Assembly (NCBI GenBank): GCA_965221695.1
Contig: OZ244905.1
Location: forward strand, 2,112,001 to 2,176,000
Direction: 5' to 3'
Source of the DNA: Gammaproteobacteria bacterium
GTDB lineage: Bacteria > Pseudomonadota > Gammaproteobacteria > Eutrophobiales > Eutrophobiaceae
DNA: 64,000 nt
Part shown: piece after piece, positions 1 to 25,243 of the stretch
Position numbering within the stretch: the stretch's first letter is position 1
Layout of the letters: every line of letters begins with the position of its first letter
Notes under the pieces: generated by a model
Database searches by the model: none
What the model was told of the DNA's origin: nothing
Seen by the model: only the letters and a program-made list of their open reading frames with translations
Position numbers and translations under genes: made by a program

Positions 1-648
1 TGGCTCAAGGGCCATATGGCCGAGTTCATGCGCGAGGGTGAAACGCTGACGCTCGCCCCAATCGTCCTGGTTCACAACCACAACCGACGCGACGCGCTTG
101 TCTTCGCGGCGCACGCGCGCGGCAAGCCCCTCGATGTTGGGAAGACTCATTGTGAACACCTTGATTCCGCGCTCTTCCAGAAGTTCGACCAAGTTCGGGA
201 TAGGATCAAGTCCGAGATTCCAATGAACTCGCATGCCATACGCAGCCTGCTCTGCTTCGGCGGGGTCGCGCAGCACCGGCCAGGGCGCATCACGTGGTAT
301 ATCCCAGGCAACGGTAGGCAATCCCAAGATTTCCTCAACTGTCAGATAACGTTCCAGCAGACGCAGGATGTTAGCCTCGACCTGTGCCTCATCACGACGA
401 CTGGTTAGCCGCTTCTTTCGGAAATCAACGGCTTCCAGGCGAATGTCACTACTGCTTATCAGGTAGTCAATGGGCACATTGAGCGCATCGGAAAGCGCGA
501 TGAGCACGCCGGAACTCGGCACGGACTCATCATGCTCGTACTTGCTGATCGCCTGCGCCGTCACCCGGTTGCCAATTCTGGCTGACAAATCCCGAAGTGA
601 CAAACCGGAAGCACGGCGTGAAACCATTATGCGTTGGCCTAAACTCAT
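1..648 (-). CDS. XRE-family HTH fused to ImmA/IrrE (DUF955) zinc metallopeptidase; 3' end runs off the window
   Basis: Not in the ORF track; translated by hand from ATG at 648 (GGGAGA upstream): MSLGQRIMVSRRASGLSLRDLSARIGNRVTAQAISKYEH (HTH)...ERQRFTLAHELGHMALEP (HExxH). The frame stays open to position 1. Confidence 0.88.
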   Translation of the reverse strand, partial: MSLGQRIMVSRRASGLSLRDLSARIGNRVTAQAISKYEHDESVPSSGVLIALSDALNVPIDYLISSSDIRLEAVDFRKKRLTSRRDEAQVEANILRLLERYLTVEEILGLPTVAWDIPRDAPWPVLRDPAEAEQAAYGMRVHWNLGLDPIPNLVELLEERGIKVFTMSLPNIEGLAARVRREDKRVASVVVVNQDDWGERQRFTLAHELGHMALEP

Positions 649-665
649 TATTCTCCCATACTTTA

Positions 666-705
666 TAGTTGATAAATATCACATATGAGAAATATTTGTC
701 AACTA
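666..705. promoter_or_regulatory. Inverted repeat, candidate operator, in the divergent promoter region
   Basis: Arms TAGTTGATAAATAT (666-679) and ATATTTGTCAACTA (692-705) are 13/14 complementary; the right arm contains a minus-strand TTGACA (697-702). Confidence 0.6.
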
Positions 706-777
706 ACGGGTTGAAAACTGTTGCTACATCCCCATCATTTATGAAATGACATATATTACTTATTAGAGATTACTACC

Positions 778-1938
778 ATGACTGCTCAGATTTTGTTTTT
801 TTCCGTCGGAAATGGCGATATGACCTTCATCAAGACAGAGGAAGGCCGAAGAATATTGATCGATATGAACATTCGGTCCGCCGCGGATGATCTCAATGAT
901 GATACTCCCGACGTTGCAGCGAAGCTACGAAAAAACCTCGTGCGCGACGATGCGGGAAGGCTTTATATCGATGCGTTGCTTATCAGCCACCCTGACGAAG
1001 ACCATTGTCGCGGTTTGCGCAAGCACTTCCACCTCGGACCGCCTGGTAAATGGTCAAAATCAACGGATAAGATACTTATCAGGGAGGTATGGTCTTCGCC
1101 GATGGTATTCCGTAGAGCATCACGACAGCATATCCTATGCGACGATGCAAAAGCTTTTAACACCGAAGCAAAGCGTCGTGTAAGGGTATTTAGGGATACA
1201 CCTAATATAGTAGGAGGTGGCAACCGCATCCTCATACTTGGAGAGGACGAGGATGGCAAAACAGATGACCTCCGTCAGATTCTTGTGCCCTTGGATCATC
1301 CGTTCTCGCAAGTCAACGGGCAACATGACGAATCAATGACTGCCCTTTTGCTCGCTCCATTACCGGCCGACGATGACGATGAAGAAGAGGTCATGTCAAA
1401 GAACAATTCCAGCACGATATTGCGGTTTTCTCTTGTTGGAAACGGGAAAGCAGAGAAATGCCGTTTCCTTACTGGAGGAGATGCTGGGGTCGTGATCTGG
1501 GACAAGCTCTGGCTTCGCCATTCCAAGCATATAGACTCTTTGTCCTACGACATTCTGCTCTCCCCGCACCACTGCTCTTGGCATAGTTTGTCGCACGATA
1601 GCTGGAGCGAGTTGGGCGAAAACGCAAAGGTTTCCAACGATGCGCTCAATGCCCTCTCGCAAGCTCGCAGCGGAGCCACGATTGTCGCCAGCAGCAAACC
1701 GATCAAGAACGACAACAATGACCCACCATGCATTCGGGCCAAGCGCGAGTACGAAAAGATCGTGGAAAAAGTATCAGGACGATTCGAATGTGTCGGTGAA
1801 CACCAATCCGCAAGAACTTCGGGTGTCTTGGAATTCGAAGTCGGCGCAAACGGTATTCGCTTAGTGACCTCTATGATGGCCCCCCGCATAGTGTCAGGTT
1901 CCGGGACCATCGGTCGGCAGCCCCATTCGCACGGCTAG
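778..1938 (+). CDS. Metallo-beta-lactamase-fold (ComEC-like) hydrolase with C-terminal Gly tail
   Basis: Motifs VGNGD, SHPDEDH, TGGD and PHHCS; ends ...SGSGTIGRQPHSHG. Confidence 0.85.
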   Translation: MTAQILFFSVGNGDMTFIKTEEGRRILIDMNIRSAADDLNDDTPDVAAKLRKNLVRDDAGRLYIDALLISHPDEDHCRGLRKHFHLGPPGKWSKSTDKILIREVWSSPMVFRRASRQHILCDDAKAFNTEAKRRVRVFRDTPNIVGGGNRILILGEDEDGKTDDLRQILVPLDHPFSQVNGQHDESMTALLLAPLPADDDDEEEVMSKNNSSTILRFSLVGNGKAEKCRFLTGGDAGVVIWDKLWLRHSKHIDSLSYDILLSPHHCSWHSLSHDSWSELGENAKVSNDALNALSQARSGATIVASSKPIKNDNNDPPCIRAKREYEKIVEKVSGRFECVGEHQSARTSGVLEFEVGANGIRLVTSMMAPRIVSGSGTIGRQPHSHG

Positions 1939-1946
1939 CTCTGAAT

Positions 1947-4223
1947 ATGGCCCGGAGCGAAATTAAACAGGAGCTTCGGCGCGCTCTGGTCTTGATCCGC
2001 GCACACCCGGCTGTTAAAGCGTGTAGCGCACCAAAGACCAATGGGATGAGCGATACCATCACGGTCGATGTGACTTTCAACGTTGAACTACCCAGCGAGT
2101 GGCGGCGCCTAGGTAGAAGCCCTTTTGGTATCATGCTTCAAGAGGAAGTACGAATTGTGTTTCCAAATGGATTTCCCTTGGAGCCGCCTGAATTTTCGTT
2201 GCGAGCGGACTTCAATCGGAATCTCCCTCATATGCAACCGTGGTTGTCAGATGGCCGTCCTGTCCCTTGTATCTACCGCGGTGACCTGGCCGAGTTGCTA
2301 CAGCGAGAGGGACTGGCTGCTATTCTCAACCAGATGGCAATTTGGCTCGAACGCGCTGCCCTTGGTACTTTGATCGATCCGGATCAGGGTTGGGAACCGG
2401 TGCTTCGTGATTCGTTTGCGGACATCCTGGTCGCAGATGCAGCATTTTTACAGGACTTAGTAGACCGGCGAGGAGGTCATCGGTTCGTAAAGATGAAGTA
2501 TATTAAGTCGACTACTGACGATGGTTCACCGCTCCTGCAAGGGCAAATCATTAATGACATCGCTCCGGTGAATCGTCAGACAATTTGCGGTTATTTTAAT
2601 ACGATGGAGGTCACTAACGAGCGCATGGTGAGTTATGGCCAGTCGCTGGCGTTGGTAGTTTGGCCAGGCAAACATCCTTCGGGAAAGCCAGTCATCAATG
2701 ACACATATCTCCCTGAGACGGTGAAAAATGTTAAGGGTCTCAGGGTACGAGCTGAGGGGTACGCATGCAGACAACAACTAGATGCTGGTCTAAACCAATT
2801 GAGAACCTGCATGCCCGCGCTGCGATCGTCGGGACCACACACGTTGGCGGTCATCCTATTGGTGCGTCGGCCATTTCCCATCATTGGAAGCAAGAGCCCA
2901 ATTGAACTTTGTCCGTATGTTATGGAAGTTTGGTTCCCGCAACTGTTCGCCAACGGTGAAGCTACGGCTGTTCGCGCGGCTGCTCAACGCAATGCCATTT
3001 CCCAAGATTTGCTTGCCCAAATGGCAGGACTGAATTCGGGAGACGAAGCTCTCTCATGGACACTCGTCGGCGCGGGTAGTCTGGGCTCTAAAATCGCGCT
3101 TCATCTGGCGAGAACTGGAAACGGTCCGAATGTCGTCGTTGATAAGTCTATAATGTCGCCACACAACGCGGCTCGTCACGCTCTTGTGCCAACTCCCGAT
3201 GGATTACAGGTGACCTGGACCGATATGAAAGCGCGGATATTGTCGCAAGCGTTGCAAGGTCTTAACCAAACAGCTATCCCAATCTCGGAAGATGCGATGC
3301 AAATATTGACAACCGGAAAGAACACCCAAGGGGCTTGGTCGAAAAAGACCTGGGCGGTATTGAACGCGACAGCATCTCATGTGGTTCGTGAGGCTTTCGG
3401 AGCGAGCAACAACATACCCACACGGGTTATCGAGGTATCGTTATTCGCTGGCGGGAAGATAGGAATAGTTGCAGTAGAAGGCCCGCACCGGAATCCGTCT
3501 ACCATCGATCTGATAGCAGAGTTCTACGGTATTCTGAAAGAGCAGCCAAAGCTCGCATCGATCGTCTTCGACCGCGATGCTTCAGTATCACGCCAAGCCA
3601 CCGGACAAGGATGTGGTTCACTCACGATGAGCATGTCGGACGCAAGGCTCTCGCTGTTCGCAGCCGGAATGTCGGAATATCTCCTGTCCCGGCAGCAAAA
3701 AGGGCTACCGGAAGATGGAGGTGAAATCCTCATCGGCCAATTGACTCAAGACGGACTTGGTCTGACTTGGCATACCTACCGAACACCCGCAGTAGTCGTG
3801 GTTCAGACGGACAAAGGAGAAGCTTGGAGCATTCATATTCACCCTCGGGCACGCTTAAAGATACAGCAAGAGATGTCCCGCTGGCATGAAGTAGAAACAG
3901 GCGGCGTACTCATGGGAAGGCTTTCAGAGACAGCGCGGGTGGCGCATGTCGTGGATGTGTTAGAACCACCGGATGACAGTCGTCGTGCGACTGAAGAGTT
4001 TGTTCTAGGAAAGACAGGATTATCCAAAAGGCTACAGGAATACTCGGAGACTGTCGGCTGGTCGCTACACTGCCTCGGAACTTGGCACAGCCATGTCTCT
4101 GAGGGCGGACCGTCCAGAAAAGATCGAGCTACAGCAAAAGAAGTGGCATTCGCTCGGTTGACGCCCTCTTTTTTCCTGATCGTAACCCCTGCAGGCTTCC
4201 ACGCGATCATGGCCAGTGGATAA
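1947..4223 (+). CDS. E2-E1(ThiF)-JAB triple fusion (Cap2/Cap3-like conjugation and deconjugation protein)
   Basis: E2-like FPLEPP...LPH...PCIY; E1 VGAGSLG, VDK...HNAARH and GQGCGS; JAB ETGGVLMG and WHSH...PSRKD. Confidence 0.88.
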   Translation: MARSEIKQELRRALVLIRAHPAVKACSAPKTNGMSDTITVDVTFNVELPSEWRRLGRSPFGIMLQEEVRIVFPNGFPLEPPEFSLRADFNRNLPHMQPWLSDGRPVPCIYRGDLAELLQREGLAAILNQMAIWLERAALGTLIDPDQGWEPVLRDSFADILVADAAFLQDLVDRRGGHRFVKMKYIKSTTDDGSPLLQGQIINDIAPVNRQTICGYFNTMEVTNERMVSYGQSLALVVWPGKHPSGKPVINDTYLPETVKNVKGLRVRAEGYACRQQLDAGLNQLRTCMPALRSSGPHTLAVILLVRRPFPIIGSKSPIELCPYVMEVWFPQLFANGEATAVRAAAQRNAISQDLLAQMAGLNSGDEALSWTLVGAGSLGSKIALHLARTGNGPNVVVDKSIMSPHNAARHALVPTPDGLQVTWTDMKARILSQALQGLNQTAIPISEDAMQILTTGKNTQGAWSKKTWAVLNATASHVVREAFGASNNIPTRVIEVSLFAGGKIGIVAVEGPHRNPSTIDLIAEFYGILKEQPKLASIVFDRDASVSRQATGQGCGSLTMSMSDARLSLFAAGMSEYLLSRQQKGLPEDGGEILIGQLTQDGLGLTWHTYRTPAVVVVQTDKGEAWSIHIHPRARLKIQQEMSRWHEVETGGVLMGRLSETARVAHVVDVLEPPDDSRRATEEFVLGKTGLSKRLQEYSETVGWSLHCLGTWHSHVSEGGPSRKDRATAKEVAFARLTPSFFLIVTPAGFHAIMASG

Positions 4224-5032
4224 GGGGACAGAGGGCCTGGGAATATGTTGAATGTGTTGACTTACCTGCTCGACCCATATGAGCGAAAGGCGAGGCACTA
4301 CCCTGCGCTGCTGTGTGGACTACCCTTATTGGTATCGGTCGTGCTGTTGATTCCCGAATTTGGCGCGGTGTGGGGAGCTATTGGTGGGTTCGCTATTTTT
4401 TGCGGCGGTACGACTTTTCTGGCCCAGATCACCCGGGACCGGGGAAAGACTATGGAGCCTAAACTGTATGCATTGTGGGGTGGCAAACCATCTGTAGCCA
4501 TGTTACGCCATGCCGACTCACGACTTAACCCGTCGACGAAGAACCGCTACAGAACATTCTTGCAACGGGTTGTGCCCGAATTGACGCTGGCTTCTGTCGA
4601 GGAGGAACAGGCAAACTCCAAAGGTGCTGATCAGGGATATGAAAGCACTATCTCGTGGCTACTGGCCAGGACGAGAGATCGTGAGCGCTTTGGACTCCTG
4701 TTTCGAGAAAACATCAACTATGGCTTTCGCCGAAATATCTGGGCACTCAAACCTTGGGCATTTGCCATGGAAGCGATCGCTTTGGTCATTATTGGGATAT
4801 CGGTCCTCGAATTGTGGACGGGAGAGTTCTTGGCTTCGATCCAGATGCTCGGTATGGAAACGTGGGCGAGTCTCATACTCACAATAATCCATGTATTGTT
4901 CTTCACATTCAGAATTAACAATGAGTGGGTTGCGTATTTCACTGAATCCTGCCACCCGTTTCACGTGAAGGCTGCCACCCGGAACGCAGCAAAGCTGCCA
5001 CCCCCCGGCGCGTGATGACGTGGGTATTGTCA

Positions 5033-5791
5033 TTATGACTCTGTTGGGGTCATGGCCGTCAATGTTTTTTTCTGTTTTCGCATGGATTCTCCCTTGAGGT
5101 TGATTTTATACGCATTGTGTACCAGGCGGTCGAGGATGGCATCGGCGAGTGTGGGGTCGCCGATCATGGCGTGCCATTTTTCGACCGGCAGTTGACTGGT
5201 TGCCAGAGTGGAGTGTGCGCCGTGGCGGTCTTCGAGGATTTCGAGCAGGTCGCGGCGATGTTCGGTGGTCAACTTGACCAGTCCCCAGTCATCAAGGATG
5301 AGGAGTTGTGTTCTGGCCAGGGTGTGGATGAGTTTGGGGTAGCGCCCATCGCCTTTGGCAATAGTGAGGTCCTGGAGGAGTCGGGGCAGGCGCAGGTAGA
5401 GGGCGGTGTAGCCGGTCCGGCAGGCGCTGTGCGCCAGGGCGCAGGCGAGCCAGGTTTTCCCGACGCCGGTGGGGCCGGTGATGAGGATATTGAGGTGGTC
5501 ACAGAGCCATTGGCAGGTGGCCAGGGATTGCATCAGGGCTTTATCCAGTCCGCGCGGGTGGAGGTAATCGATGTTCTCGATGGTGGCCTGGTGTTTGAGT
5601 CGGGCGCGTCGCAGTCGGCTGGCGGTGCGCCGGTTGTGGCGCTCGGTGAGTTCCCGGTCGACGAGCAGGCCGAGGCGTTCCTCGAAGGTCAGGGCGTCGA
5701 TATCGGGCAGGGCCATTTGCTCGGTGAGGGCGGCCGCCATCCCGGTGCATTTCAGGGTGTGGAGTTTGTCCAGGGTTGGATGTGTCAGCAT
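5033..5791 (-). CDS. istB: IS21 helper AAA+ ATPase
   Basis: GPTGVGKT, LILDDWG and AILDRLVH motifs; start set at MLTHPT. Confidence 0.95.
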   Translation of the reverse strand: MLTHPTLDKLHTLKCTGMAAALTEQMALPDIDALTFEERLGLLVDRELTERHNRRTASRLRRARLKHQATIENIDYLHPRGLDKALMQSLATCQWLCDHLNILITGPTGVGKTWLACALAHSACRTGYTALYLRLPRLLQDLTIAKGDGRYPKLIHTLARTQLLILDDWGLVKLTTEHRRDLLEILEDRHGAHSTLATSQLPVEKWHAMIGDPTLADAILDRLVHNAYKINLKGESMRKQKKTLTAMTPTES

Positions 5792-5810
5792 AGCGCTCTC
5801 CTGTTGTGGG

Positions 5811-7352
5811 TTAGTGGTAATAGGTCGGACCACGGATATTGTCGTGCGCCGCGGGGAGCTCCATCTCGGTCTGCTCGGTCAGGGGTTGGTTGTCGAGGCC
5901 GTGGCGGAGGATGGATTCGATACTCTTGTAGCTGTGGCTGCCCAGGGTCAGAGCGCGTCGGCAGGCGGCGTTGAGCCGGTCATTGCCGTAGGTGTTACTC
6001 AGGCGCAGGATTCCCAGACAACTCCGGTAGGCTTGCTGGGGGTGTTTGCGGGCCGTCAGCCGCTGGCGGACCAGCCGTGCCGTGGCCGCACCGATACGGA
6101 CGGCCCAACGTTCCAGGCGTTGCGGGGACCACTCGCCGGCCTGCCGGTGTGCCTCGGGCATATGGGCCGGGACGGTGGTATGGCGGCCTTTATGGTGTGT
6201 GCGCCGATGGCTGGCGATGCGCTGGTTGCGGTAGAAGCACTCAATGGTGTTGGCGGTGATGCGCACCTCCACCTGTTTTTTAATAAACGCATGCGGCACT
6301 GAGTAGTAATGGCCGTGCACCTCGACGTGATAATCAATATGGACCCGGGCCTGCTTCCACTCGGCGTACTCATACGCATCGACCGGCAAGGGGCGCAGGG
6401 CCGGTTTATCCAGTTGCGCAAACAGGGCGCACCGACTGCCCGGCAGTTTCCTGAAGGGGCGCCGGTTGAGCCGCACCAGCAACTCGCCTATGGCCCGGTT
6501 CAACTCGGCCAGGGAGAAGCACTGACGGTGACGCAACGCAGCCAGGATCCAGCGCTCCACCACCTGCACCCCGACCTCGGCTTTCGCCTTATCCCGGGGC
6601 CGGCGCACCCGCGCCGGAATGATGGCCACCCCGTAATGCGTGGCCAGGTCCTGGTAGGTGGGGTTGATGTCCGGCTCATACCGATGCGCCTTACTCACCC
6701 CGGCGCGCAAATTGTCCGGCACCACCACCTCCGGCACACCGTCCAAGTAGGTAAAACAGCGTACATGCGCGCCGATCCAGTCTGCCAGACCCTGGGTCCA
6801 GGTGGCCTCAGCATAGGTGTAGTTCGATGCGCCCAGCACCGCCACGAAGATGTTTGCCTCTCGCACTGCCCCGGTTACCCGGTCGATAACCTGGGCATGC
6901 ATCCCGGCATAATCTACGAACAGCTTCTCACCGGCATGGTGGGTCTGGCGCATGACCAGGTCCAGCTTGCCGGCCCAGGCCCGGTACTGTTGGCAGAACC
7001 AGGTATACTGGTAGCCGTGCGGATGAGTCCGACGATATTCCTGCCACAGCAGCATCAACGTCACGCCCGGACGTTTCAGTTCCCGGTGCACAGCCGCCCA
7101 ATCGGGCACCCCGCGCGCCCTAGCCGGCTGGACCGGCGGGGGCGGAAACAGCAGGCGATCCAGTGCCCTGTCATCCAACTCAACCGGCAACGGCCAATGC
7201 AGCCCGGCCGCCTCAGCCCGGCGCAGGTATTCATTTACCGCCGGACGGGATATGCCACAACTCCTGGCCGTTTGGCGTTTGCTCAGGCCCTGGCCCCAGC
7301 ACAAGCGTAATACGTCTTTTATCTTTCTCATGGACAACCTCTTTGCAGGCAT
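5811..7352 (-). CDS. istA: IS21 DDE transposase
   Basis: FVDYAG, VPDNL and PRDKAKAE motifs; ends [11 protein letters not shown]. Confidence 0.95.
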
Positions 7353-7741
7353 CTGCGGTTCCTCCTTTCAATTGAAACAAGGACACAGGATACCTGTGGT
7401 TATCCACGTCAGACGCGCCGGCTATCTACCTCCTTGGGGGTGGCAGCTTTGCCGTGTAATGGGTGGCAGCTTTCGTGTGAAATGGGTGGCAGCTTTGCCG
7501 TGTAATCGGTGGCAGCTTTGCTGTGAAATACGCAAGTGGGTTCGGATCGCTGCTGAAACCTACGCTCGGCAGCTTCTTTCGACATGTGATTTGCTTGAGG
7601 ACGGTCATGAGGTTTGATCAGGTCAGTGCTCCCAGCAAAATCGGCAATGAAACAAACCTGAAACCAAACGACATTTTCTAGACGTTTTTCGTAATTGATG
7701 TGTAAGATTGATCTTATTTTGTAAATTAGGAGACCTCGTTA

Positions 7742-8533
7742 ATGATCTTGGTTGACGGCGCATATCTTTACGGCTTAGGTCTGTCTATACAGCCTTTGCA
7801 CACAATTAATCAGAAGGGAACATATGGTCAGGTATGGTACAACTGTTACGTTGCGAAAAACTATCTTGAAGGATTTATTACAGATAGCGATTATTCAGAT
7901 GCCGTCAGAATCATGGTAGAGCCAGCAAATTCTTTAATTTTCGCACTTGAAACAATATGTGAGGAAGCAATTAAACCAGAAAAAAAAGATAAAATACTAG
8001 ACCCGACACTTTTTTACAACTTAAGAACAGTATTGCGAGATTTTGAGTCTGTTTTCAAAGCTGAGTTCAGACATGGTAATTTATTTCTTGCTACTCAAAA
8101 GGGGGCATATGATCTTAGAACACTATTTGCGAAAGGTGAGTTACTATTCCCAGCAAATTTTACGGAATTGTTCCCAGAAGCAGTTAAAGATGTCCAAGAC
8201 GGAGCGCGCTGCTTGGTATTTGAGATGTATACCGCATCGGGATTCCACTTTCATCGTGCAAATGAAAGTGTGCTATTAAGGTATCTGAAATCAGTTCGCG
8301 CAAAACAACCTGATAATAGAAACATGGGCGCATACATCGAAGCCCTTAAGGACGTCGAAAATGTTCCCAAGGAAATAATTGTGTACTTGAAGAGTTTAAA
8401 AGATTTGCAACGAAATCCTTTAATGCATCCGGGAGAATCTATTGATAATGTAGACGATGCGCTTGCTCTACTAAATGCAGTTCACACTGCTATTACGGCG
8501 ATGATGAGAGAAATAGCCTCACAACATGATTAA
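7742..8533 (+). CDS. Hypothetical protein with C-terminal HEPN-like (DUF4145-type) domain
   Basis: A..C....YTASGFH..RA.E pattern and R-x4-H motif RNPLMH; AT-rich. Confidence 0.55.
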   Translation: MILVDGAYLYGLGLSIQPLHTINQKGTYGQVWYNCYVAKNYLEGFITDSDYSDAVRIMVEPANSLIFALETICEEAIKPEKKDKILDPTLFYNLRTVLRDFESVFKAEFRHGNLFLATQKGAYDLRTLFAKGELLFPANFTELFPEAVKDVQDGARCLVFEMYTASGFHFHRANESVLLRYLKSVRAKQPDNRNMGAYIEALKDVENVPKEIIVYLKSLKDLQRNPLMHPGESIDNVDDALALLNAVHTAITAMMREIASQHD

Positions 8534-8656: not shown

Positions 8657-11600
8657 ATGACCGCCCAACACCAATCCTCCATCAGCTTCACATCCACCGA
8701 TGATGATTCGCAACCGGTAACCCCCGGCTTGCCGGCCAGCCGGGTTCACGCCGAGCTGCGCCGGTTGGCCGACAGCCATCACGCGCAGGGGAAACAGTTC
8801 GAGCGTGTGATGGTCCGTTATTTCCAGCAGTCGGTGCTGTACCGGGATAAACTCAAGAGCGTGCAGTTGTGGGACGAGTGGGCAGGCGCACACGGGATAG
8901 ACGGGCGCGATGTCGGCATCGATCTGGTGGCCCAGACCCATGACGGGGAGTACTGGGCCATACAATGCAAGTGTTACGCGAACACGCACACCCTGCAAAA
9001 ACGCGATATTGACTCCTTTCTCTCAGCTACCGGCAAGGAGTGGGGGGATAAGAATATCCCGTTCTCACAGGTGCTGGTGGTCTCCTCCACGGCGAACTGG
9101 TCGGTACATGCAGAGCGGGCCATTGAGAATCGCAAGCCGCCCTGTCATCGTCTGGACTTGGCTGAGCTGAGCGACGATGCGGGCACGGACTGGTCGGCGC
9201 TGCTGCCGGATTTGGAACTTGAAAAGGCCACGCCGCGCCAGTTACGCCCCCATCAAAGGACATCGGTGGACGATGTCACAGCAGGTTTCACCACAGCCGA
9301 CCGGGGCCAACTCATTATGGCCTGCGGCACTGGCAAGACCTACACGTCTCTTAAGATCGCTGAACGCCAGGCCGGCGCTGGCGGCCGTATATTGTTCCTG
9401 GTGCCTTCGCTGTCGTTGCTCTCACAATCCCTGCGCGAGTGGGCGGCTCATCACGAATGGGCCGGGCTCCGCACCTTTGCCGTGTGCTCGGACAGCAAGG
9501 TCGGACGCAACAATGAAGATATCAATGCTTACGACCTGGCCATCCCACCCACTACGGACGGGCGCAAACTGGCGGACGGTCTGCAAAGCGACCTGCCGGA
9601 CGGACACGCGCAACTGGTGTTTGCGACCTACCAGTCCATCGGGGTGGTGCATGAGGCTCAGCAGCAAGGCGCGTTGCCCTTTGATCTCGTGATCTGCGAT
9701 GAGGCCCACCGCACCACCGGCGTGGACCTCAAGGGCGAGGAAGCCTCTTACTTCACTCGAGTGCACGACGGCGATTACCTCAAAGCACACAAGCGTCTGT
9801 ACATGACCGCGACCCCACGCATCTACAAGGACAGCGCCAAGCAACGCGCCAGGGAGAAAGACCAGGTCGCGGAGATCTACTCCATGGACGATACGGACAA
9901 ATACGGCGATACCCTCCACCGGCTGGATTTTTCAGAGGCGGTAGCCAAGGACCTCTTGAGCGACTACAAGGTGCTGGTGTTGATGGTGAACCAGGATCAC
10001 GCCGACGCCGCGCTGCAACCGCTGCTTGGCGGCAGCGCCAATATCAACCTGGACGATGCGTCGAAGATTGTCGGTTGCTGGAACGGCCTGTCGAAACGCA
10101 TAGCCGATGAAGAGGCGCTGCCGCAAACAGACACTGCGCCCATGCGCCGGGCGGTGGCCTTCTGTCAGACCATCAATATGTCCAAGGCCGTGGCGCAGAC
10201 TTTCTCAGGAATTGTGAATCAATACCGGGAAAGCTCCCCTGACGATGAGGAAGCGCTGGGGTGTACCGTCGAACATGTTGACGGCACCCAAAATGCGCTG
10301 AAACGGAACCAGGCGCTGGAATGGCTCAAGGACGAGCCAGGTGAGAACGAATGCCGGATACTAAGCAACGTGCGCTGCCTGTCCGAAGGCGTGGATGTCC
10401 CGGCGCTGGACGCAGTACTGTTTTTAAGCCCCCGCAACTCACAGGTGGATGTCGTTCAGGCCGTGGGGCGTGTCATGCGCAAGGCAGAGGGCAAGGAATA
10501 CGGTTACGTGATTCTGCCGGTCTGCGTCAAACAGGACAGCTCACCCGAGCAGGCATTGCAGGATGAAAAGAACTACAAGGTGGTCTGGCAGGTGTTGCAA
10601 GCCCTGCGCGCCCACGATGACCGGTTCAATGCCGAGATCAACAAGATTGAACTCAACAAGCGGCGGCAGGGACGCATCAATGTCGTCGGGATCGGCTTCG
10701 GCGGCGATGGGGATGGCGACGACAGAGAGCGCGGTGGCGGAGAGGAAGAGATCCGCGAACCGTTGCAACTCCCGATAAACCTTAAGGACCTGAAAGAAGC
10801 CCTGTACGCCAGGCTGGTCCTGAAATGCGGCGACCGCCGCTACTGGGAGAGCTGGGCTAAGGATGTGGCCGATATTGCCGGACGCAATATCACCCGTATC
10901 ACCACGCTAGTCGGGCAGAGTGATGCCGATTACCGTGAGATCTTCGAGGAGTTCATGACGGAGTTGCGCCAGAACATCAACCCTCAAGTATCAGAAGCGG
11001 ACGCCATCGAAATGCTCGCCCAGCACCTGATTACCCGCCCGGTATTCGATGCGCTGTTCGAGGGCTATTCATTCATCAAGAACAACCCGGTTTCAAAGAC
11101 CATGCAGGCGATGCTGGAATTGCTTGATGAGCAGAACCTTGAGACCGAAACCAGGAGCCTGCAGGGCTTCTACGACAGCGTGCGCCGGCGCGCCAGCGGC
11201 ATCGACAACGCCGAAGGCCGGCAGAAGGTCGTGATCGAACTCTACGAGAAATTCTTCAAAGAAGCCTTCCCTAAGATGGCCGATAGCCTGGGGATTGTCT
11301 ACACACCGGTTGAGATTGTGGATTTCATCCTGAAAAGCGTCAACGACCTGCTGGTGCAGGAATTCGGTGGTGAACACCTCTCATCAGAAAATGTGCATGT
11401 GCTGGACCCGTTTACCGGCACCGGCACTTTCATCACGAGACTGCTGGCCTCCGACCTGATCACGGATACAGCGCTGGCGCGCAAGTACCGGCAGGAACTG
11501 CATGCCAACGAGATTGTCCTGCTAGCCTATTACATCGCTGCGGTGAACATTGAGGAGACCTACCACGAACGCTTGCGGGAGAAACTCAGAAAGGATGAAA

Positions 11601-13621
11601 AAGAAACAGACATCGACTACGAATCATTTCCCGGGATCGTGCTGACCGACACGTTCCATATCAACGAGCAAGACGGCGACATGCTGAACCAGATATTTCC
11701 GATTAACTCCGAACGGGTGATGAAACAGAAGGACACGCCTATCCGGGTAGTGTTGGGCAACCCGCCATATTCGGCAGGACAGAGCAGTGCCAATGACAAC
11801 AACGCCAACCTGCGTTATCCCGGACTGGATAAGAGCATTGCAAGAAGTTATGCCGCGCATTCCACGGCCACCCTGAAAAACAGCTTGTACGACTCCTATA
11901 TCCGGGCCTTCCGCTGGGCGTCAGACCGCATCGGCGATGAGGGCATCATTGCTTACGTGAGCAACGGTGGCTGGCTCGACGGTAACGCCATGGATGGATT
12001 CCGCCGCTGTTTGGCAGAGGAGTTTAACCGAATCTACTGTTTCAACTTGAGAGGAAACCAGCGCACTTCCGGTGAGTTATCTCGCAGGGAAGGCGGCAAG
12101 ATATTTGGGTCAGGCAGCCGCGCCGGCATCACACTGACGTTCCTTGTCAAAAAGAAGGATGCCAAAGGCGAATGCCAGATCCGCTACTACGACATCGGCG
12201 ATTACCTTGACAGGAATCAGAAACTGGACACCATCAGGGACTTTGTAAGCATCGGAAACATGGAGGACCTCTGGGAAACGATAACACCGAACAAACACCA
12301 TGACTGGATTAACCAGCGCAGTGAGGTGTTTCTGGACTACCTTCCACTGGGCGTTAAGGAAAACAAACGCAACAAGCGAACAGTGGACAGTGTATTTACC
12401 CTGTATAGTCGAGGTGTTGCGACAAGCCGTGACGCTTGGGTGTACAACTTCTGCAAAGAAACACTTTCAAATAACATGCAAAAAACCATTTCGTTTTACA
12501 ACAGTGAGGTGGAGCGTTATCGGCTGGCATGTGAAGAAAAAAGGGAGAACGAGCGACCAGAGATAAAGGATTTTATCCATTATGACGCGACCACAATGAG
12601 TTGGGATAGGGAAATTAGAAATGATCTCAGACTCCTTAAAACTGGCCAATACCATGATTCTAAGATAAGAACTGGAATCTATAGGCCATTCACAAAACAA
12701 CAGTTTTATTTTGACGACCAGTTTAACAACATGGTTTGTCTTCAGCCAAAATTTTTCCCGACCCCTAACACACAAAACCTCGCCATCTGTGTCTCCGGCA
12801 TCGGCGCCAGCAAGGACTTTTCTGCGCTGATGGTGGATACCATGCCTGATTTGAATTGTCTTGATGCTGGCACGCAGTGTTTTCCCCGCTACCACTATCT
12901 CTCAGCCGACGAACAGGAAAAGCAAGCCTCGCTGGACATGGGTGAGACGAAACACCCCCGGGTAGACAACATCCCCCAGGAGACGGTGACCCGGTTCCAG
13001 GAGCAGTACCGGAACAGCGCCATTGATGCCGATGCCATCTTCTATTACGTCTACGGCCTGCTGCACAGCCCCGACTACAAGACCCGGTTTGCCGCGGATC
13101 TCAAGAAGATGTTGCCCCGAATCCCTCTCGTCGACAGCCCAGAAGACTTCCGGCGGTTTTCCGAGGCCGGCAGGGCGCTGGCCGACCTCCATGTCGGCTA
13201 TGAGAACATAGAGCGTTGGCCACTGACCATCCGGATTGACAAGAACCAACAGGAAAAAGATAACCAGCACACAGAGCAGGGTAGTCAGGATGATGAGACA
13301 CTGTACCAGGTGAAAAAGATGACCTTCGGCGGCAGCGCCCGGCCCCCTGACAAGACGACCATCCGCTATAACGACCACATTACCATCGAAGCGATCCCGC
13401 CAGATGCCTACAGGTATATCGTCAACGGCAAGAGCGCCATTGAATGGATCATGGAGCGCTACCAGGTCACACAACACAAGGAAAGCAAAATCATCAACGA
13501 CCCGAACAAATGGTCCGATGATCCCCGATACATCTTGGAACTACTCGGAAAAGTGGTGACCGTCAGCATGAAGACGGTAGAGATTATATCCGGACTGCCC
13601 GAACTGGAAAAAGCTACATAA
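8657..13621 (+). CDS. Type ISP restriction-modification enzyme (Mrr-like nuclease, SF2 helicase, adenine MTase, TRD; LlaGI/LlaBIII-like)
   Basis: GIDLV...AIQCK, MACGTGKT, DEAH, MTATP, DPFTGTG and GNPPY motifs; 1654 aa. Confidence 0.93.
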   Translation: MTAQHQSSISFTSTDDDSQPVTPGLPASRVHAELRRLADSHHAQGKQFERVMVRYFQQSVLYRDKLKSVQLWDEWAGAHGIDGRDVGIDLVAQTHDGEYWAIQCKCYANTHTLQKRDIDSFLSATGKEWGDKNIPFSQVLVVSSTANWSVHAERAIENRKPPCHRLDLAELSDDAGTDWSALLPDLELEKATPRQLRPHQRTSVDDVTAGFTTADRGQLIMACGTGKTYTSLKIAERQAGAGGRILFLVPSLSLLSQSLREWAAHHEWAGLRTFAVCSDSKVGRNNEDINAYDLAIPPTTDGRKLADGLQSDLPDGHAQLVFATYQSIGVVHEAQQQGALPFDLVICDEAHRTTGVDLKGEEASYFTRVHDGDYLKAHKRLYMTATPRIYKDSAKQRAREKDQVAEIYSMDDTDKYGDTLHRLDFSEAVAKDLLSDYKVLVLMVNQDHADAALQPLLGGSANINLDDASKIVGCWNGLSKRIADEEALPQTDTAPMRRAVAFCQTINMSKAVAQTFSGIVNQYRESSPDDEEALGCTVEHVDGTQNALKRNQALEWLKDEPGENECRILSNVRCLSEGVDVPALDAVLFLSPRNSQVDVVQAVGRVMRKAEGKEYGYVILPVCVKQDSSPEQALQDEKNYKVVWQVLQALRAHDDRFNAEINKIELNKRRQGRINVVGIGFGGDGDGDDRERGGGEEEIREPLQLPINLKDLKEALYARLVLKCGDRRYWESWAKDVADIAGRNITRITTLVGQSDADYREIFEEFMTELRQNINPQVSEADAIEMLAQHLITRPVFDALFEGYSFIKNNPVSKTMQAMLELLDEQNLETETRSLQGFYDSVRRRASGIDNAEGRQKVVIELYEKFFKEAFPKMADSLGIVYTPVEIVDFILKSVNDLLVQEFGGEHLSSENVHVLDPFTGTGTFITRLLASDLITDTALARKYRQELHANEIVLLAYYIAAVNIEETYHERLREKLRKDEKETDIDYESFPGIVLTDTFHINEQDGDMLNQIFPINSERVMKQKDTPIRVVLGNPPYSAGQSSANDNNANLRYPGLDKSIARSYAAHSTATLKNSLYDSYIRAFRWASDRIGDEGIIAYVSNGGWLDGNAMDGFRRCLAEEFNRIYCFNLRGNQRTSGELSRREGGKIFGSGSRAGITLTFLVKKKDAKGECQIRYYDIGDYLDRNQKLDTIRDFVSIGNMEDLWETITPNKHHDWINQRSEVFLDYLPLGVKENKRNKRTVDSVFTLYSRGVATSRDAWVYNFCKETLSNNMQKTISFYNSEVERYRLACEEKRENERPEIKDFIHYDATTMSWDREIRNDLRLLKTGQYHDSKIRTGIYRPFTKQQFYFDDQFNNMVCLQPKFFPTPNTQNLAICVSGIGASKDFSALMVDTMPDLNCLDAGTQCFPRYHYLSADEQEKQASLDMGETKHPRVDNIPQETVTRFQEQYRNSAIDADAIFYYVYGLLHSPDYKTRFAADLKKMLPRIPLVDSPEDFRRFSEAGRALADLHVGYENIERWPLTIRIDKNQQEKDNQHTEQGSQDDETLYQVKKMTFGGSARPPDKTTIRYNDHITIEAIPPDAYRYIVNGKSAIEWIMERYQVTQHKESKIINDPNKWSDDPRYILELLGKVVTVSMKTVEIISGLPELEKAT

Positions 13622-13624
13622 GAA

Positions 13625-14293
13625 ATGTCTGCTGTTACGAAACTGCTTATTCCGTATGAACAACACCGGGTTCTTCGTCCCTTAATCCAACTCATTCCCC
13701 TTGGGTTTGGCTCTGCTATTGACACCTTTATGATGCAAACACTGAGTAAAATCCGAGAGGAGCGTGTCAGCGAGTTTATTGATGAATTAGCCAAAGGGAA
13801 CCAGATAAATGACGAACAACTTCTGGAGTCTGAAGATTTTCTTCACTGTTACATCACAACTGTAGATCTAGCGCTTAAAACATATCAGCGTAAGAAAATT
13901 CGCATGTTTGCCAGTTTGCTAAAGAGTTCGCTAGGCGACTCCGGTCCGGCCGACATTGACGAATATGAATACTTTCTCAATATATTGGACAATCTGGGGT
14001 TCAAGGAAATTCAGGCTCTGACCATTCTCGACAGACTCGTTGATAGTTTTGGAGATGATACAGATAACCCTTATTGGGATAAAACCTTATGGGAGGGGTT
14101 TGAAAACAAGTTATATTTAGAACTGGGTATCCCACCAGAAAGGGCTGCTGATTTCATGAATGGAATAGTACGTACCGGGTGTTACGAAATATTTCCAGGC
14201 GCATCCATAAGACACACCAAGAGCCAAGGAAAGTTGACGCCAACTTTCAACCGCCTAAAGGAATTTGTGATAAAAAACGAGCCAGATGCCTAA
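13625..14293 (+). CDS. Hypothetical protein resembling Abi-alpha/DUF4393
   Basis: KKIRMFASLL...FLNILDNL...EIQAL and C-terminal wHTH-like GKLTPTF; starts 4 nt after the type ISP stop. Confidence 0.4.
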   Translation: MSAVTKLLIPYEQHRVLRPLIQLIPLGFGSAIDTFMMQTLSKIREERVSEFIDELAKGNQINDEQLLESEDFLHCYITTVDLALKTYQRKKIRMFASLLKSSLGDSGPADIDEYEYFLNILDNLGFKEIQALTILDRLVDSFGDDTDNPYWDKTLWEGFENKLYLELGIPPERAADFMNGIVRTGCYEIFPGASIRHTKSQGKLTPTFNRLKEFVIKNEPDA

Positions 14294-16238: not shown

Positions 16239-17036
16239 GTGACAGTTAGCACAGGAGAGATCGTCTACGAAATCGGTCATGCCCCCTGTTCAGGGGTCGG
16301 GCTACAATGGTCGGACGACGAGTTGAGTACAGCACTGAATGATCGGGTTGCGGCTTTGCTATTCGATGACGAAGGCATGGCAAACATTGAGGAGATTCTT
16401 GCGCCCATAGCGGACACGGATTTTGCCCGGGATGGGCTTCGCCGCGTACTGGATGGTCCTAGCGAGATCGAAGACTGGAAAGTGGGCGAAGCGATTGCGG
16501 AGACTTATTTGACAGGCCATCGCAACTGTAGCTTCCCATGGCCGGACGGACGTGACGAGAGAAAGGGAGGGTCCAGTCTGCCAGGCGCGGACCTGGTCGG
16601 ATTCGGGATCGACAACAAAGGCGATTGTCTGGCGTTCGGCGAAGTCAAGACCTCAAGCGAACATAGATACCCACCAGGAGCCATGTACGGGCGCACAGGC
16701 ATGAAACGGCAACTCGAAGATCTGCGCGATAATGAAAATATCCGTGACGATCTCGTGAAATATCTTAGTCACAGGGCGGGAACGGCGCATTGGCAAGCGC
16801 GTTTCAAGCGAGCGGCGAGAAGGTATCTCCACAATACATCCGATGTTCAACTTTACGGTTTTCTCGTTCGCGATGTGAAGCCCCATCAAAGTGATTTGCG
16901 GGCACGGGTCGATGCCCTTGGCACCAGATGTCCTGACACAACGCACATTGAGTTGCTCGCGCTTTACCTGCCGAAAGAAAGTCTGGAAAATATCGGAGAG
17001 AAGATGGTTGCACAGCGGGTGAGGGGGATACGATGA
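16239..17036 (+). CDS. Hachiman HamA-like PD-(D/E)XK nuclease
   Basis: VGEAIAE...GADLVG...FGEVK; ATGA overlap with the helicase gene. Confidence 0.7.
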   Translation: MTVSTGEIVYEIGHAPCSGVGLQWSDDELSTALNDRVAALLFDDEGMANIEEILAPIADTDFARDGLRRVLDGPSEIEDWKVGEAIAETYLTGHRNCSFPWPDGRDERKGGSSLPGADLVGFGIDNKGDCLAFGEVKTSSEHRYPPGAMYGRTGMKRQLEDLRDNENIRDDLVKYLSHRAGTAHWQARFKRAARRYLHNTSDVQLYGFLVRDVKPHQSDLRARVDALGTRCPDTTHIELLALYLPKESLENIGEKMVAQRVRGIR

Positions 17037-20000
17037 GCCTTTCCAGTGGAGCATTTGAGTCGTTGAACGAACACTGGGCGATTGACGCCATCGGTTCGGA
17101 TGAGATCTTGCGCACGGATGCTCTCGTTCGCGAGCGTCTGGCACAGCGAGCGGTCGGCAGACAGATCAGCTTCTCGTTCACTGAGAACCAGGAAGATGAA
17201 GCAGTTCTGGAACGTGTCGCACTTGCTTATGAGTTGGCTGCCATCGAGGGTATTGATGAGCTGAGCCGTCCGGCTGGAGAGAACCAGCGTATTCGAGACC
17301 AAGCTGTGGCAGCTTCGTTCCGCGCTTTCGATATTCGCCGACTTCATCCCGTCCCGATGGAGACCCATGAGCGCCTGTTCTTTGTACTTCATCTTTCTGC
17401 CCTTGCTTATTGTGGGGATCGCTGGTCCGACTTGCGGCGCTGGTACAGAGATAATGGGCAATCGTTAAGCGCGCCGAGCGTTGCTGATACGGATTGGGAC
17501 CAGAGACTGCTCTACAGGCTGTTCGACTGCTGGGTGCGCTTGTTTCGCAAGGATGGTTGGGACGATCTTGATCAAATTCGCGAGATCATCGCCGGCTTGC
17601 GTAACGACCAGAAAATTTACGAAGAACGCCGTCTGAGCAACGGTTCTGAGGCGGTGGATAGAGCGATCGCCTTTCGCCTTGCGGCGCTTTACCATTGGGC
17701 CAAAGCTACTGAGACGCTCGCGGCATATATGTTACAAGGAGATAATGGCGATCCCTTCGGCATTCTGGACAAGCACTTCGAAGCGGGGATCAAGGCAGCG
17801 GCTGCGTCGAGGGATGCGCAACATGAGATGACGCTTCGGTGGCTGCACGCCACCGCGCGCATCATGGTAACGAATTCACTCTGGTGGGCGACGCGCGCGG
17901 TCAATTCACAGACTTCTGACTTTGTGCGCTATATCACTCACCGTGAGCGTCAACCGATGTTCGAGCTATTGCCACCACAACGGGTGGCGCTGGTTGAACA
18001 GGGGTTGCTCGATCAGGCAAAAACAGCAATCGTTATTGACATACCGACCTCCGGTGGGAAAACGCTGCTCGCGCAGTTCCGCATACTTCAAGCATTGAAT
18101 CAGTTTCAGGCTGAACAAGGCTGGGTGGTTTACGTTACACCAACTCGAGCGCTGTCAGCGCAAATCACGAGACGCTTGCGAATGGACTTTGAGCCAATCG
18201 GGTTGCGTGTCGAGCAGTTAACCGCAGCGGTCGAGGTGGACGCTTTTGAGGAAGAACTGCTCACCAACCAGAAACAGCCTTTTGATATTCTTGTCGCGAC
18301 GCCTGAGAAGTTGTCGTTGGTAATCCGAAACAAGAAGGTGGGCCGCCCACTTGCCCTGGTGGTAATGGACGAAGCTCACAATTTAGAAACTGAAAGCCGC
18401 GGGCTACGGATTGAGTTGCTTCTGGCAACGGTAAAGCGTGACTGCCCACAGGCAAATTTTCTCTTACTGATGCCTTATGTCGAGGGATCGGAGTCAGTCG
18501 CTCGCTGGCTGGCGCATGATATCAATGCGGGGCGTGCAATCAGTTTGGGTACCGTTCCGTGGAAACCCAATGAGCGGATTATTGGTCTGTACCGTGCGGT
18601 AGCTGATGATAGCGAACGCGCCGGTTGGCGGCTTGATTTCGAGACCCTGACCGCGACCGAGAAGGCCATGCCGCTTCATGGTACCCATAGAGTGGGAGGC
18701 GTGAAACCTCTCAAGGTGCCAAAGAGCCAGGTTCTCATAAAAGGCACGCAGACAGGATTTGGTTTACAGACGGCAGCGATCGGCGCAGTCATGTCAGCGC
18801 GGGGCACAAGCATCACAGTGGCCAATACTATTCCCACCGTATGGAAAATGGCAGAGGAAGCGGCGCGTAGTCTGCCCGATCTGGACGAAACGCCGGCAGA
18901 CATCCGGTTGGCCCAAGACTTTCTGCGCACGGAGATAAGCGCAGACTTCAAGTTGGTCGGTTTACTCGATAAGGGCGTGGGAGTCCATCACGCTGGACTA
19001 TCTGATGATATCCGGGCACTGATGGAATGGCTTGCGGAAACGGGTAGTCTTCGGATGTTGTGCGCGACATCAACCATCGCGCAAGGGATCAATTTCCCGG
19101 TTTCCTCCGTCTTTCTCTCATCGCGGTTTGTGCCCCAGGGACCGATGTCGGTAGAGGTTTCGCCTAGGGAGTTCTGGAATCTCGCGGGACGCGCAGGCCG
19201 TATCGACCACGATAGTGTCGGCGTGGTCGGTCTTTCTGAAGGGAAGGATCGCGATGCATTAATCGAATTCGTAAGTCGGAACACCGGCGCGCTCGTGTCC
19301 CGTCTCGTGGTGCTGCTGGACAGGCTCGCGGAACAAAAGGGCTTGGCGGGGTTATCGGATATTCTTTGGCAGGATCAGTGGGAGGACTTTCGTTGTTACA
19401 TCGCCCATCTGTGGGCAGAGAAGAAGAACCTAGATGAGGTGCTCGCGGACTCCGAGCAGCTTCTAAGGCAGACCTACGGATACACGTCCATGCGTAACGA
19501 TCCGGCGCAAAGACAAAAGGCGGAAGCATTGCTGGATGCGACGCAAAACTACGCGCGCAAGCTCGCAGAGATTCCCGAGGGCACAGTCGAGCTTGCGGAC
19601 TTGACGGGTTTCTCGCCTGAAGGTGTGCAGGCTGCGTTGGGGGGGATCAACAACCTCGAACGCAAGCTCACCGCTTCCGACTGGGTGCCGGAGAGCCTAT
19701 TCGGCAACGGTGGTAGATTGGCTGATTTGTTCGGTGTTATGTTGAAGGTGCCGCAACTCAAGCAGGATTTGGATAAACTGGCTGGAAAGGGAGTAGACCA
19801 AATCCGCATTTCTGAGATCACAAACGACTGGGTCAATGGAAAAGGACTGGAAGAAATCGCGAGGAAGTATTTCTCGCGTGAGAATAATGACGAGTCTGGG
19901 TTGGACGCTTTGACGGATGCTTGCAGAGCAATCTATCGCACTATCGTCAACAACGGCACATGGGGCGTTTCGGCACTGAGCCAGGTATCGGGGCTCGATT

Positions 20001-20311
20001 TCGACGCTCTGTCGGATGCGGACAATAGACGGATCAATGCGCTTCCTGCAATGATCTATCACGGCGTGAGCAGCGAGGATGCGGTGCTGATGCGCATGAA
20101 TTCCGCTCCGCGCAGCGTGGCAGAAGCACTGGGTAATTTATATCGGGAAATGACAGGCGGTAATGAAGAACGATACTCGGTGGGAGAGGCGCGAGGCTTC
20201 CTCAAGGAACTCGACACCGCCGACTGGGATAAGGTGAGACCGCAAGGCGCGCCGCTGTCGGGAACAGGATATCAGCGAGTGTGGGAGATTCTCTCAGGCG
20301 AGACGAAATGA
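17033..20311 (+). CDS. Hachiman HamB-like Ski2-type SF2 helicase
   Basis: PTSGGKT, PTRAL, TPEK, DEAH, HHAGL, TSTIAQGIN and AGRAGR motifs. Confidence 0.8.
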   Translation: MSLSSGAFESLNEHWAIDAIGSDEILRTDALVRERLAQRAVGRQISFSFTENQEDEAVLERVALAYELAAIEGIDELSRPAGENQRIRDQAVAASFRAFDIRRLHPVPMETHERLFFVLHLSALAYCGDRWSDLRRWYRDNGQSLSAPSVADTDWDQRLLYRLFDCWVRLFRKDGWDDLDQIREIIAGLRNDQKIYEERRLSNGSEAVDRAIAFRLAALYHWAKATETLAAYMLQGDNGDPFGILDKHFEAGIKAAAASRDAQHEMTLRWLHATARIMVTNSLWWATRAVNSQTSDFVRYITHRERQPMFELLPPQRVALVEQGLLDQAKTAIVIDIPTSGGKTLLAQFRILQALNQFQAEQGWVVYVTPTRALSAQITRRLRMDFEPIGLRVEQLTAAVEVDAFEEELLTNQKQPFDILVATPEKLSLVIRNKKVGRPLALVVMDEAHNLETESRGLRIELLLATVKRDCPQANFLLLMPYVEGSESVARWLAHDINAGRAISLGTVPWKPNERIIGLYRAVADDSERAGWRLDFETLTATEKAMPLHGTHRVGGVKPLKVPKSQVLIKGTQTGFGLQTAAIGAVMSARGTSITVANTIPTVWKMAEEAARSLPDLDETPADIRLAQDFLRTEISADFKLVGLLDKGVGVHHAGLSDDIRALMEWLAETGSLRMLCATSTIAQGINFPVSSVFLSSRFVPQGPMSVEVSPREFWNLAGRAGRIDHDSVGVVGLSEGKDRDALIEFVSRNTGALVSRLVVLLDRLAEQKGLAGLSDILWQDQWEDFRCYIAHLWAEKKNLDEVLADSEQLLRQTYGYTSMRNDPAQRQKAEALLDATQNYARKLAEIPEGTVELADLTGFSPEGVQAALGGINNLERKLTASDWVPESLFGNGGRLADLFGVMLKVPQLKQDLDKLAGKGVDQIRISEITNDWVNGKGLEEIARKYFSRENNDESGLDALTDACRAIYRTIVNNGTWGVSALSQVSGLDFDALSDADNRRINALPAMIYHGVSSEDAVLMRMNSAPRSVAEALGNLYREMTGGNEERYSVGEARGFLKELDTADWDKVRPQGAPLSGTGYQRVWEILSGETK

Positions 20312-21114: not shown

Positions 21115-21199
21115 CGCGCAGCTCGCGACACAGTAGAAAAAGGACTGCCACTACAGTTTAAAATTGCGCCAGGATTGGGCGCAATTGCGTAAATTCAAG

Positions 21200-21496: not shown

Positions 21497-21526
21497 TATT
21501 TCAATAAGAATAAATCAGGCCTAGAC

Positions 21527-25231: not shown

Positions 25232-25243
25232 GGTTTGCTACCC

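Follow-up and report, generated by a model that had tools for sequence, protein, structure and literature searches.

The left end of a 64,000-nucleotide stretch of DNA from a Gammaproteobacteria bacterium (positions 2,112,001 to 2,176,000 of contig OZ244905.1, assembly GCA_965221695.1; hereafter the window, part of a single-contig genome of 3.54 Mb) carries an operon that two curated family models identify as a copy of an already named anti-phage system, 6A-MBL. The core of this system is a metallo-beta-lactamase (MBL)-fold hydrolase and an E2-E1-JAB triple fusion protein. In the window, a third gene, encoding a membrane protein, follows these two, and a gene of this kind is found in most 6A-type loci that we examined. 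Based on the anatomy of the operon and on its relatives, we think it probable, with moderate confidence, that this is a 6A-MBL operon with a third, membrane-bound subunit that would partner the MBL at the inner membrane, and with a borrowed regulator that would gate its expression. The coordinates are collected in Table 1.

Table 1. Features at the left end of the window, in window positions
Feature	Position	Strand	Basis
5' part of fused XRE-HTH / ImmA-IrrE (M78) metallopeptidase gene	1..648	-	Pfam HTH_3 and Peptidase_M78; HELGH
Putative back-to-back promoter region	649..777	.	Inverted hexamers conserved in relatives
6A-MBL enzyme, ComEC-like MBL-fold hydrolase with disordered Gly-ended tail	778..1938	+	NCBIfam NF058524
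6A-MBL cap2_3, E2-E1-JAB triple fusion	1947..4223	+	NCBIfam NF058523
5' part (codons 1-228) of remotely Csx27-like membrane protein gene	4245..4930	+	AF2 model; HH link to family TMc
IS21-family element; istA 5811-7352, istB 5033-5833	4931..7534	-	NCBIfam over cut-off; terminal repeats; target duplication
Stranded 3' end of membrane gene, conserved C-terminal helix	7535..7617	+	Uninterrupted continuation in L001

The core operon and its interrupted membrane gene

A first-pass annotation of this DNA had described three tightly spaced, co-oriented genes and a divergent regulator, and the open reading frame coordinates bear this out. The MBL gene encodes 386 amino acids ending in glycine and the fusion gene encodes 758 amino acids; the gaps between the co-oriented genes are 8 nucleotides (MBL to fusion) and 21 nucleotides, and the divergent reading frame starts at position 648, 129 nucleotides from the MBL start. 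With 420 bits on NF058524 (cut-off, 220) for the MBL and 565 bits on NF058523 (cut-off, 320) for the fusion, both proteins exceed their thresholds, in agreement with the earlier view that the two-gene core is probably not new. Also as annotated, Pfam and NCBIfam scans of 9 proteins from 1 to 14.3 kb returned neither a CD-NTase nor a ubiquitin-fold family.

The fusion contains Prok-E2_A, ThiF (below its cut-off), and Prok-JAB domains by Pfam, and its best sequence match in the PDB is Cap2 (7to3, E 7e-16). Residues C108, GxGxxG at 375 to 380, R410, C556, E650, H714, H716, S723, and D726 are invariant or nearly so among 19 homologues and are all present here. On this basis the fusion is predicted to be catalytically intact. 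The roles that we give to the conserved E2, E1, JAB, and MBL positions are assumed from family knowledge. Related fusions were found in 31 plasmid records.

In the MBL, residues H71, D73, D75, H76, D235, H264, H265, and G386 are invariant among 19 aligned homologues and are all present here, which leaves the metal site intact. The AlphaFold2 (AF2) model is globular up to residue 365, and the tail (residues 366 to 386) has a pLDDT below 50. The top Foldseek match of the model is the MBL domain of ComEC (9ic4, E 5e-14), with Pce also close, and the hydrolase is most likely a nuclease or a phosphodiesterase. Glycine is present in 65 of 65 distinct tails of MBLs encoded beside a high-scoring fusion (terminal in 45 and located 1 to 8 residues before the end in 20), while the second-type MBLs that served as a control have a terminal glycine in only 1 of 36 cases. 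Beside low-scoring ligases, in which the JAB is mostly split off, 7 of 13 MBL tails end in alanine. This pattern fits the Gly/Ala rule for the C termini of the cyclases of CBASS (anti-phage signaling systems based on cyclic oligonucleotides) (PMC11153139), and "MBL pathways" have been placed together with CBASS among the systems that conjugate an enzyme of their own (PMC11601596; this paper and the others cited in this report are cited for the passages available to us). Because of this agreement, the tail of the MBL itself is likely to be the conjugated moiety, with trimming by the JAB domain. The first-pass annotation had also read the MBL as a Gly-tailed substrate, and the conserved glycine and the disordered tail give that reading comparative support.

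Ala-ended 6A-type MBLs (..GFA, ..RYA, and ..GYA) occur in loci L078, L090, L096, L098, L102, L112, L115, L116, and L125. The ligase of these loci is low-scoring and the JAB is mostly a separate gene; the one low-scoring ligase of this kind that was tested, from L134, does not reach the cut-off of NF058523, and the MBL of the same locus passes.

The membrane gene of the window is split by an IS21-family insertion sequence (IS) of 2604 bp, which has TGCG..CGCA ends and is flanked by a 7-bp target duplication. Its transposase and its IstB protein both exceed their NCBIfam cut-offs, and an identical second copy, likewise with a flanking duplication, is present in the same genome (G000:C1:1958047-1960650). 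In contrast, the membrane gene of locus L001, whose fusion is 99% identical to that of the window, encodes an intact protein of 253 amino acids and carries no IS. Because the IS interrupts the gene, the reading frame in the window has lost the last 24 residues of the protein, including a leucine that does not vary among the homologues (140 of 140), and finishes with residues that stem from the IS. In run X2, a joint representing the empty site (4923 to 7535) was detected at a depth of 28, with only 22 letters on its short side, together with an IS junction at a depth of 50 and flanks at 81; the allele with the IS thus outnumbers the empty one. Since the empty-site joint coexists with the IS junction in this run, the data suggest that the insertion is recent and still polymorphic. 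In runs X3 and X4, the coverage of the locus is fragmentary. As far as the sequence allows us to predict, the membrane gene is knocked out in this genome and the two-gene core is left intact.

A recurrent membrane gene and its possible link to Csx27

The neighbourhoods were drawn from 99 loci with a 6A MBL and an E1 module, which form 74 clusters at 90% identity; 50 of these have enough flanking sequence and 24 were dropped. The pool does not contain the genome of the window itself, nor does it contain the short duplicates L016-L026 or 13 loci selected for their transmembrane (TM) protein. The set leans to close relatives because its metagenome part consists of the best 80 of 562 matches. Within these 50 nonredundant loci, 42 have a membrane gene, which belongs to the same family as the window gene in 25, to family TMb in 11, to PDC-M48A in 4, and to TMc and TMe in 1 each. 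(The PDC-M48A and TMe categories were defined after inspection of loci that were first scored as empty.) The window TM family stands directly behind the fusion in 17 of its 25 loci. Of the 42 loci with a membrane gene, 28 showed no second MBL. In an unbiased sample of 400 genomes, 9 exceed the fusion cut-off, and 6 of these have a membrane gene; one contig in which only the downstream side is present was counted as a miss. The window TM family occurs in 5 of the 400 genomes, that is, in 4 of the 9 with 6A-MBL and in 1 of the 391 without it (Fisher p 6e-7, for genomes that are not fully independent). These counts support the earlier suggestion that the membrane gene is a real, recurrent partner of the core.

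The partner that stays constant is revealed by loci that were selected for the TM family (n = 14: 5 viral records, 8 plasmid records hand-picked from 87, and 1 genome). In all 14, an MBL with an HxDxDH motif is adjacent or in the same operon. Because 12 of them have a second-type MBL (PDC-M48B-like and adjacent) and 2 have a 6A MBL, we conclude that the constant partner of the TM family is an MBL, not the ligase.

Several other arrangements were observed in these neighbourhoods. Pairs of a second-type MBL and a TM protein are carried as cargo in three phage-like viral contigs (L127, L128, and L129). PDC-M48A lies directly behind a 6A fusion in L006 (L006:8362-8886), L007, L008, and L048, joining two systems that are catalogued separately. 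In the place of the membrane gene behind the fusion, a small LRAT/NlpC-like protein (a weak Pfam match) is encoded at L021:1009-1389 and L110:5995-6426, and a patatin phospholipase is encoded at a single locus, L025:222-1421 (L025/L172). In the literature searched, which did not include key primary papers, we came upon no study in which a 6A-MBL membrane gene had been put to experiment and no use of the name "MBL-group." No MBL passage is found in the Ledvina preprint, PMC13373217 yielded none of use, and PDC-M48 is not named in the main text of the Payne 2024 preprint.

The first-pass annotation described the membrane protein as a 4-TM protein. The AF2 model (pLDDT 95) consists of two helices, a soluble insert, two more helices, and a C-terminal helix, so that four long helices are indeed present; in contrast, Kyte-Doolittle analysis gives only three clear hydrophobic regions, with a Gly-rich helix at ~41 to 60 remaining under the threshold. 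With 2721 clusters at 50% identity (E <= 0.001), this is a large family, and the membrane protein has no match in Pfam, NCBIfam, or PADLOC model searches. Foldseek found no PDB structure that matches the model at E <= 0.001, and VIA-align recognized no solved fold, with a best Z of 6.4 that reflects short helical pieces only and is nonspecific. The ESM Atlas clusters that the model matched, at 0.97, are all unnamed, and none of the named clusters reached 0.9. PDC-M48A was not matched by the window reading frame or by any of 140 homologues.

A connection to Csx27 runs through family TMc. The window TM family aligns with TMc over its full length by HH profile comparison (96%, E 4e-9), and 20 of 35 TMc members match the PADLOC Csx27 model at E <= 0.05 (best, 1.6e-5). 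When the Csx27 model was matched directly, 1 of 140 members of the window family was found, at E 8e-4, and the intact allele was not. A search of the whole genome with this model gave no match, with 6 of 14 controls matching at E <= 10. Further profile links, of TMb with TMa (49%) and of TMb with TMc (8%), are weak, and profile comparison, with the 4 sequences at hand, did not connect the PDC-M48A-type family with any of the other three membrane families. In two reviews (PMC8209922 and PMC7642515), Makarova et al. 2019 (PMC6700684) are reported to place Csx27 in a four-helix membrane family that is associated with genes of natural transformation, components of the ubiquitin system, and WYL proteins. 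The same context, with a ComEC-like MBL, ubiquitin-system genes, and WYL, is seen around 6A loci. We infer that the window TM subfamily may be a remote member of the Csx27 family. Since the reviews report this family alongside ubiquitin-system genes and WYL, the layout has probably already appeared in print as a prediction.

The divergent regulator, the proposed mechanism, and alternatives

The full regulator has 365 amino acids (HELGH at 207) and extends 449 nucleotides past the left edge of the window. Just outside the window, its stop codon is overlapped by a 176-amino-acid PIN-like gene, for which the Pfam E value is 2e-4, below the cut-off, and which has no RmrT match. In PADLOC, the top match of the partial regulator protein is RmrA (110 bits), with capP at 32 bits and capH weak; compared with a true CapP from a sister locus, it shows local likeness only (30% over 99 amino acids). 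In the 50 neighbourhoods, the regulator slot is occupied by WYL in 16 loci, by a fused XRE-M78 protein in 10 (9 with a PIN gene), by CapH plus CapP in 5, and by nothing that we recognized in 19. XRE-M78 is found in 10 of the 20 loci with at least 60% MBL identity and in 0 of the 30 below this value, and it is confined to one clade of the MBL tree, in which two unlike XRE-M78 plus PIN cassettes (~28% identical) alternate. The PIN gene occurs in 5 of the 400 genomes, directly behind XRE-M78 in 4 and at a contig edge in the fifth, and none of the 5 has an over-cut-off fusion. We conclude that XRE-M78 and PIN form a module of their own, which can be exchanged. Just left of the window, at about -2100 to -1042 in window coordinates (+ strand), a second XRE-M78 gene is oriented convergently to the PIN gene; it encodes 373 amino acids in L001 and is split into two frames here.

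The first-pass annotation had raised the possibility of an undescribed system extended to four components. Because the regulator is limited to a clade, is often replaced by WYL or CapH/CapP, and occurs without 6A-MBL, a fixed four-part system is not supported, and the layout of the window (a divergent XRE-M78 gene and the window TM family directly behind the fusion) is present in 6 of the 50 loci. Thus, of the co-occurrence on which the proposal depended, the part that concerns the membrane gene stands and the part that concerns XRE-M78 does not. Nor is a protease-gated regulator a novel component, since one is already drawn beside a 6a operon in Lau et al. 2022 (10.1101/2022.04.27.489752).

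The region between the divergent genes contains inverted TTGA(C/T)A...TGTCAA hexamers at 669 to 702 and a third element, TTGAA, at 711. The hexamers are kept in 9 of 9 aligned close relatives, and the region has 4 promoter-like sites, compared with a shuffled mean of 1.1 (standard deviation, 1.2).

From the observed anatomy and co-occurrence we infer all of the functional steps that follow. By analogy with type II CBASS, the E1 domain would adenylate the terminal glycine of the MBL and hand the MBL on, by way of C556 and C108, to lysine residues in target proteins. The JAB domain would trim extensions of the tail and remove conjugates, as in the same systems, and conjugation would therefore set where and when the MBL hydrolase acts. 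The neighbourhoods suggest that the membrane protein is a partner of the MBL rather than of the ligase and that the two may form a membrane-associated module that exists also without any ligase. Most likely, the TM protein would hold or activate the MBL at the inner membrane, or it would serve as a downstream membrane effector. The XRE-M78 protein would be a repressor-peptidase taken from an independent XRE-M78 plus PIN cassette, in a slot that is elsewhere filled by WYL (CapW-like) or CapH plus CapP, and this predicted repressor probably shuts the shared promoter until DNA damage occurs or single-stranded DNA appears.

Several observations weigh against this reading. No recognized membrane gene is present in 8 of the 50 loci, and the model of the named 6A-MBL system comprises two genes, so that not every locus needs the TM protein. 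On the MBL tree, there are 19 changes of TM family, which is close to the mean of 22.8 after shuffling (minimum, 18), and the membrane families therefore appear to be exchanged almost freely, which would fit poorly with a tight, specific interface. The link to Csx27 is transitive and weak, with its single direct match lying outside this genome. A complex prediction for MBL residues 1 to 365 with the intact TM protein scored 0.09 against a mark of 0.32; the controls were not folded, and this speaks neither for nor against contact.

The free exchange of five membrane families is what would be expected if the position behind the fusion were a general membrane-effector slot, whose occupant kills or depolarizes the cell downstream of the MBL without touching it and can be replaced by, e.g., a patatin. 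The single locus with a patatin in this place (L025/L172) and the lack of profile similarity of the PDC-M48A-type occupants to the other three families tested (4 sequences only) are consistent with such a slot. However, in each of the 14 TM-selected loci and of 4 further genome matches the TM family was accompanied by an MBL, MBL and TM distances are correlated (Mantel rho 0.6, n 21, a value that kinship alone could produce), and no signal molecule that would link the two is known. We consider this explanation unlikely.

It is more doubtful still that the membrane protein acts as a brake on the MBL or as a membrane-bound conjugation target that sequesters it. There are precedents for both, in that Csx27 represses Cas13b (PMC8209922 and PMC11662929) and the conjugation of a CBASS cyclase to PspA has been described, with the cyclase partitioning to membranes (PMC11153139). 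An intact core can persist after loss of the membrane gene, and Lys68, Lys99, and Lys169 are conserved in soluble-side segments of the TM protein. However, these lysines are conserved equally beside ligase-free MBLs (10 sequences) and in 6A loci (21 sequences), and for this reason they are ruled out as conjugation-specific sites. Loss of a brake should not be tolerable, yet the allele that carries the IS is the commoner one in run X2.

An obligate system of four or five genes (XRE-M78, PIN, MBL, fusion, and TM) is highly improbable: although the promoter is conserved and the presence of two unlike cassettes in the same divergent position of one MBL clade suggests selection for this type of regulator, the full layout and the XRE-M78 gene are too restricted in the 50 loci, and the PIN gene follows XRE-M78 in genomes that lack an over-cut-off fusion.

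A third membrane subunit that partners the MBL thus remains the reading that we prefer. A broader version of it, which is possible but which we hold only tentatively, is that the real unit is a widespread pair of an MBL nuclease and a Csx27-like membrane protein acting at the membrane where phage or plasmid DNA enters the cell, and that 6A-MBL is the version whose ubiquitin-like ligase would couple the nuclease to membrane proteins or to those of incoming phage. If true, the uncatalogued TM family would be a missing component of most 6A-MBL systems, and it would offer a handle on the role of Csx27 for Cas13b.

Surroundings and comparison with known systems

Around the operon is a defence island, whose other members include a Type ISP restriction-modification gene, an AbiLi-like ATPase, and a PDC-M23 (Hachiman-like) pair. 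The Type ISP enzyme is complete at 8657-13621, whereas the reading frame of its L001 counterpart stops at 547 amino acids. It is flanked by genes for proteins of 263 amino acids (7742-8533, present in L001 too) and 222 amino acids (13625-14293), neither of which has a Pfam, PADLOC, or NCBIfam match. The PDC-M23A/B pair, with its Hachiman-like helicase, is located at 16239-20311 (330 and 1390 bits). A region of low GC content, 20416-25813, encodes a PDC-M35A-like protein (weak match), an OLD/AriA-like ATPase, the AbiLi-like ATPase, and a partner with no PADLOC match.

The locus is ordinary in that it consists of a named system with accessory genes of known types. Its significance is that two-gene 6A-MBL models miss a membrane gene that is found in most of the loci examined, and the part worth bench work is this large membrane family, which has no Pfam, NCBIfam, or PADLOC model. 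A comparison of the natural pair of alleles, IS-broken here and intact in L001, would bear both on the attachment target of the MBL and on the function of the Csx27 family.

Operon type 6a was described by Iyer, Burroughs, and Aravind in 2006 (PMC1779556), with the E2-E1-JAB triple protein almost always beside an MBL. A review (PMC13276650) names van den Berg et al. 2024 as the source of the phage work on 6A-MBL, and a 2025 preprint (10.1101/2025.09.30.679545) counts 6A-MBL among anti-jumbo-phage systems. The window has the same two genes, both over the curated cut-offs; relative to the two-gene model, it adds the unmodelled, IS-broken membrane gene and the divergent XRE-M78 plus PIN cassette.

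The regulator resembles the CapH/CapP loci of Lau et al. 2022, in which a 6a system of Methylobacterium oxalidis is accompanied by CapP, CapH, a metallohydrolase, E2-E1-JAB, and two hypothetical genes, and in which a vapC-like gene and a CapH-CapP fusion stand beside DISARM. As in those loci, the window has a helix-turn-helix domain and an HExxH M78 peptidase encoded divergently from the operon; it differs in that the two are fused and nearer to the RmrA model than to capP. In a comparison of the cassette with RosmerTA-like toxin-antitoxin pairs, the regulator is RmrA-like by the score of the partial protein, and its neighbour is PIN-like with no match to RmrT.

The membrane protein has two points of comparison. 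The Csx27 family, as presented in the two reviews above, has four TM helices, to which correspond four long helices in the AF2 model of the window protein but three clear hydrophobic regions by Kyte-Doolittle analysis. It shares with the window family the contexts of a ComEC-like MBL, E2-E1-JAB, and WYL, while the similarity of the window family to the PADLOC Csx27 model is marginal when direct and otherwise passes through the bridge family TMc. The PADLOC candidate PDC-M48, which consists of a membrane protein (A) and an MBL (B), follows the same logic of an MBL with a small membrane protein. PDC-M48A fills the membrane slot in some 6A loci, and PDC-M48B-type MBLs adjoin the window TM family outside 6A; in contrast, the window TM protein has no PDC-M48A match and the window MBL matches PDC-M48B weakly, at 24 bits at most.

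Finally, the Cap2 and Cap3 proteins of type II CBASS have related E1/E2 and JAB chemistry and act on a Gly/Ala-tailed substrate. Compared with that system, the locus has no CD-NTase among the 9 proteins scanned, its ligase and peptidase are joined in one chain, and the predicted substrate is the MBL.

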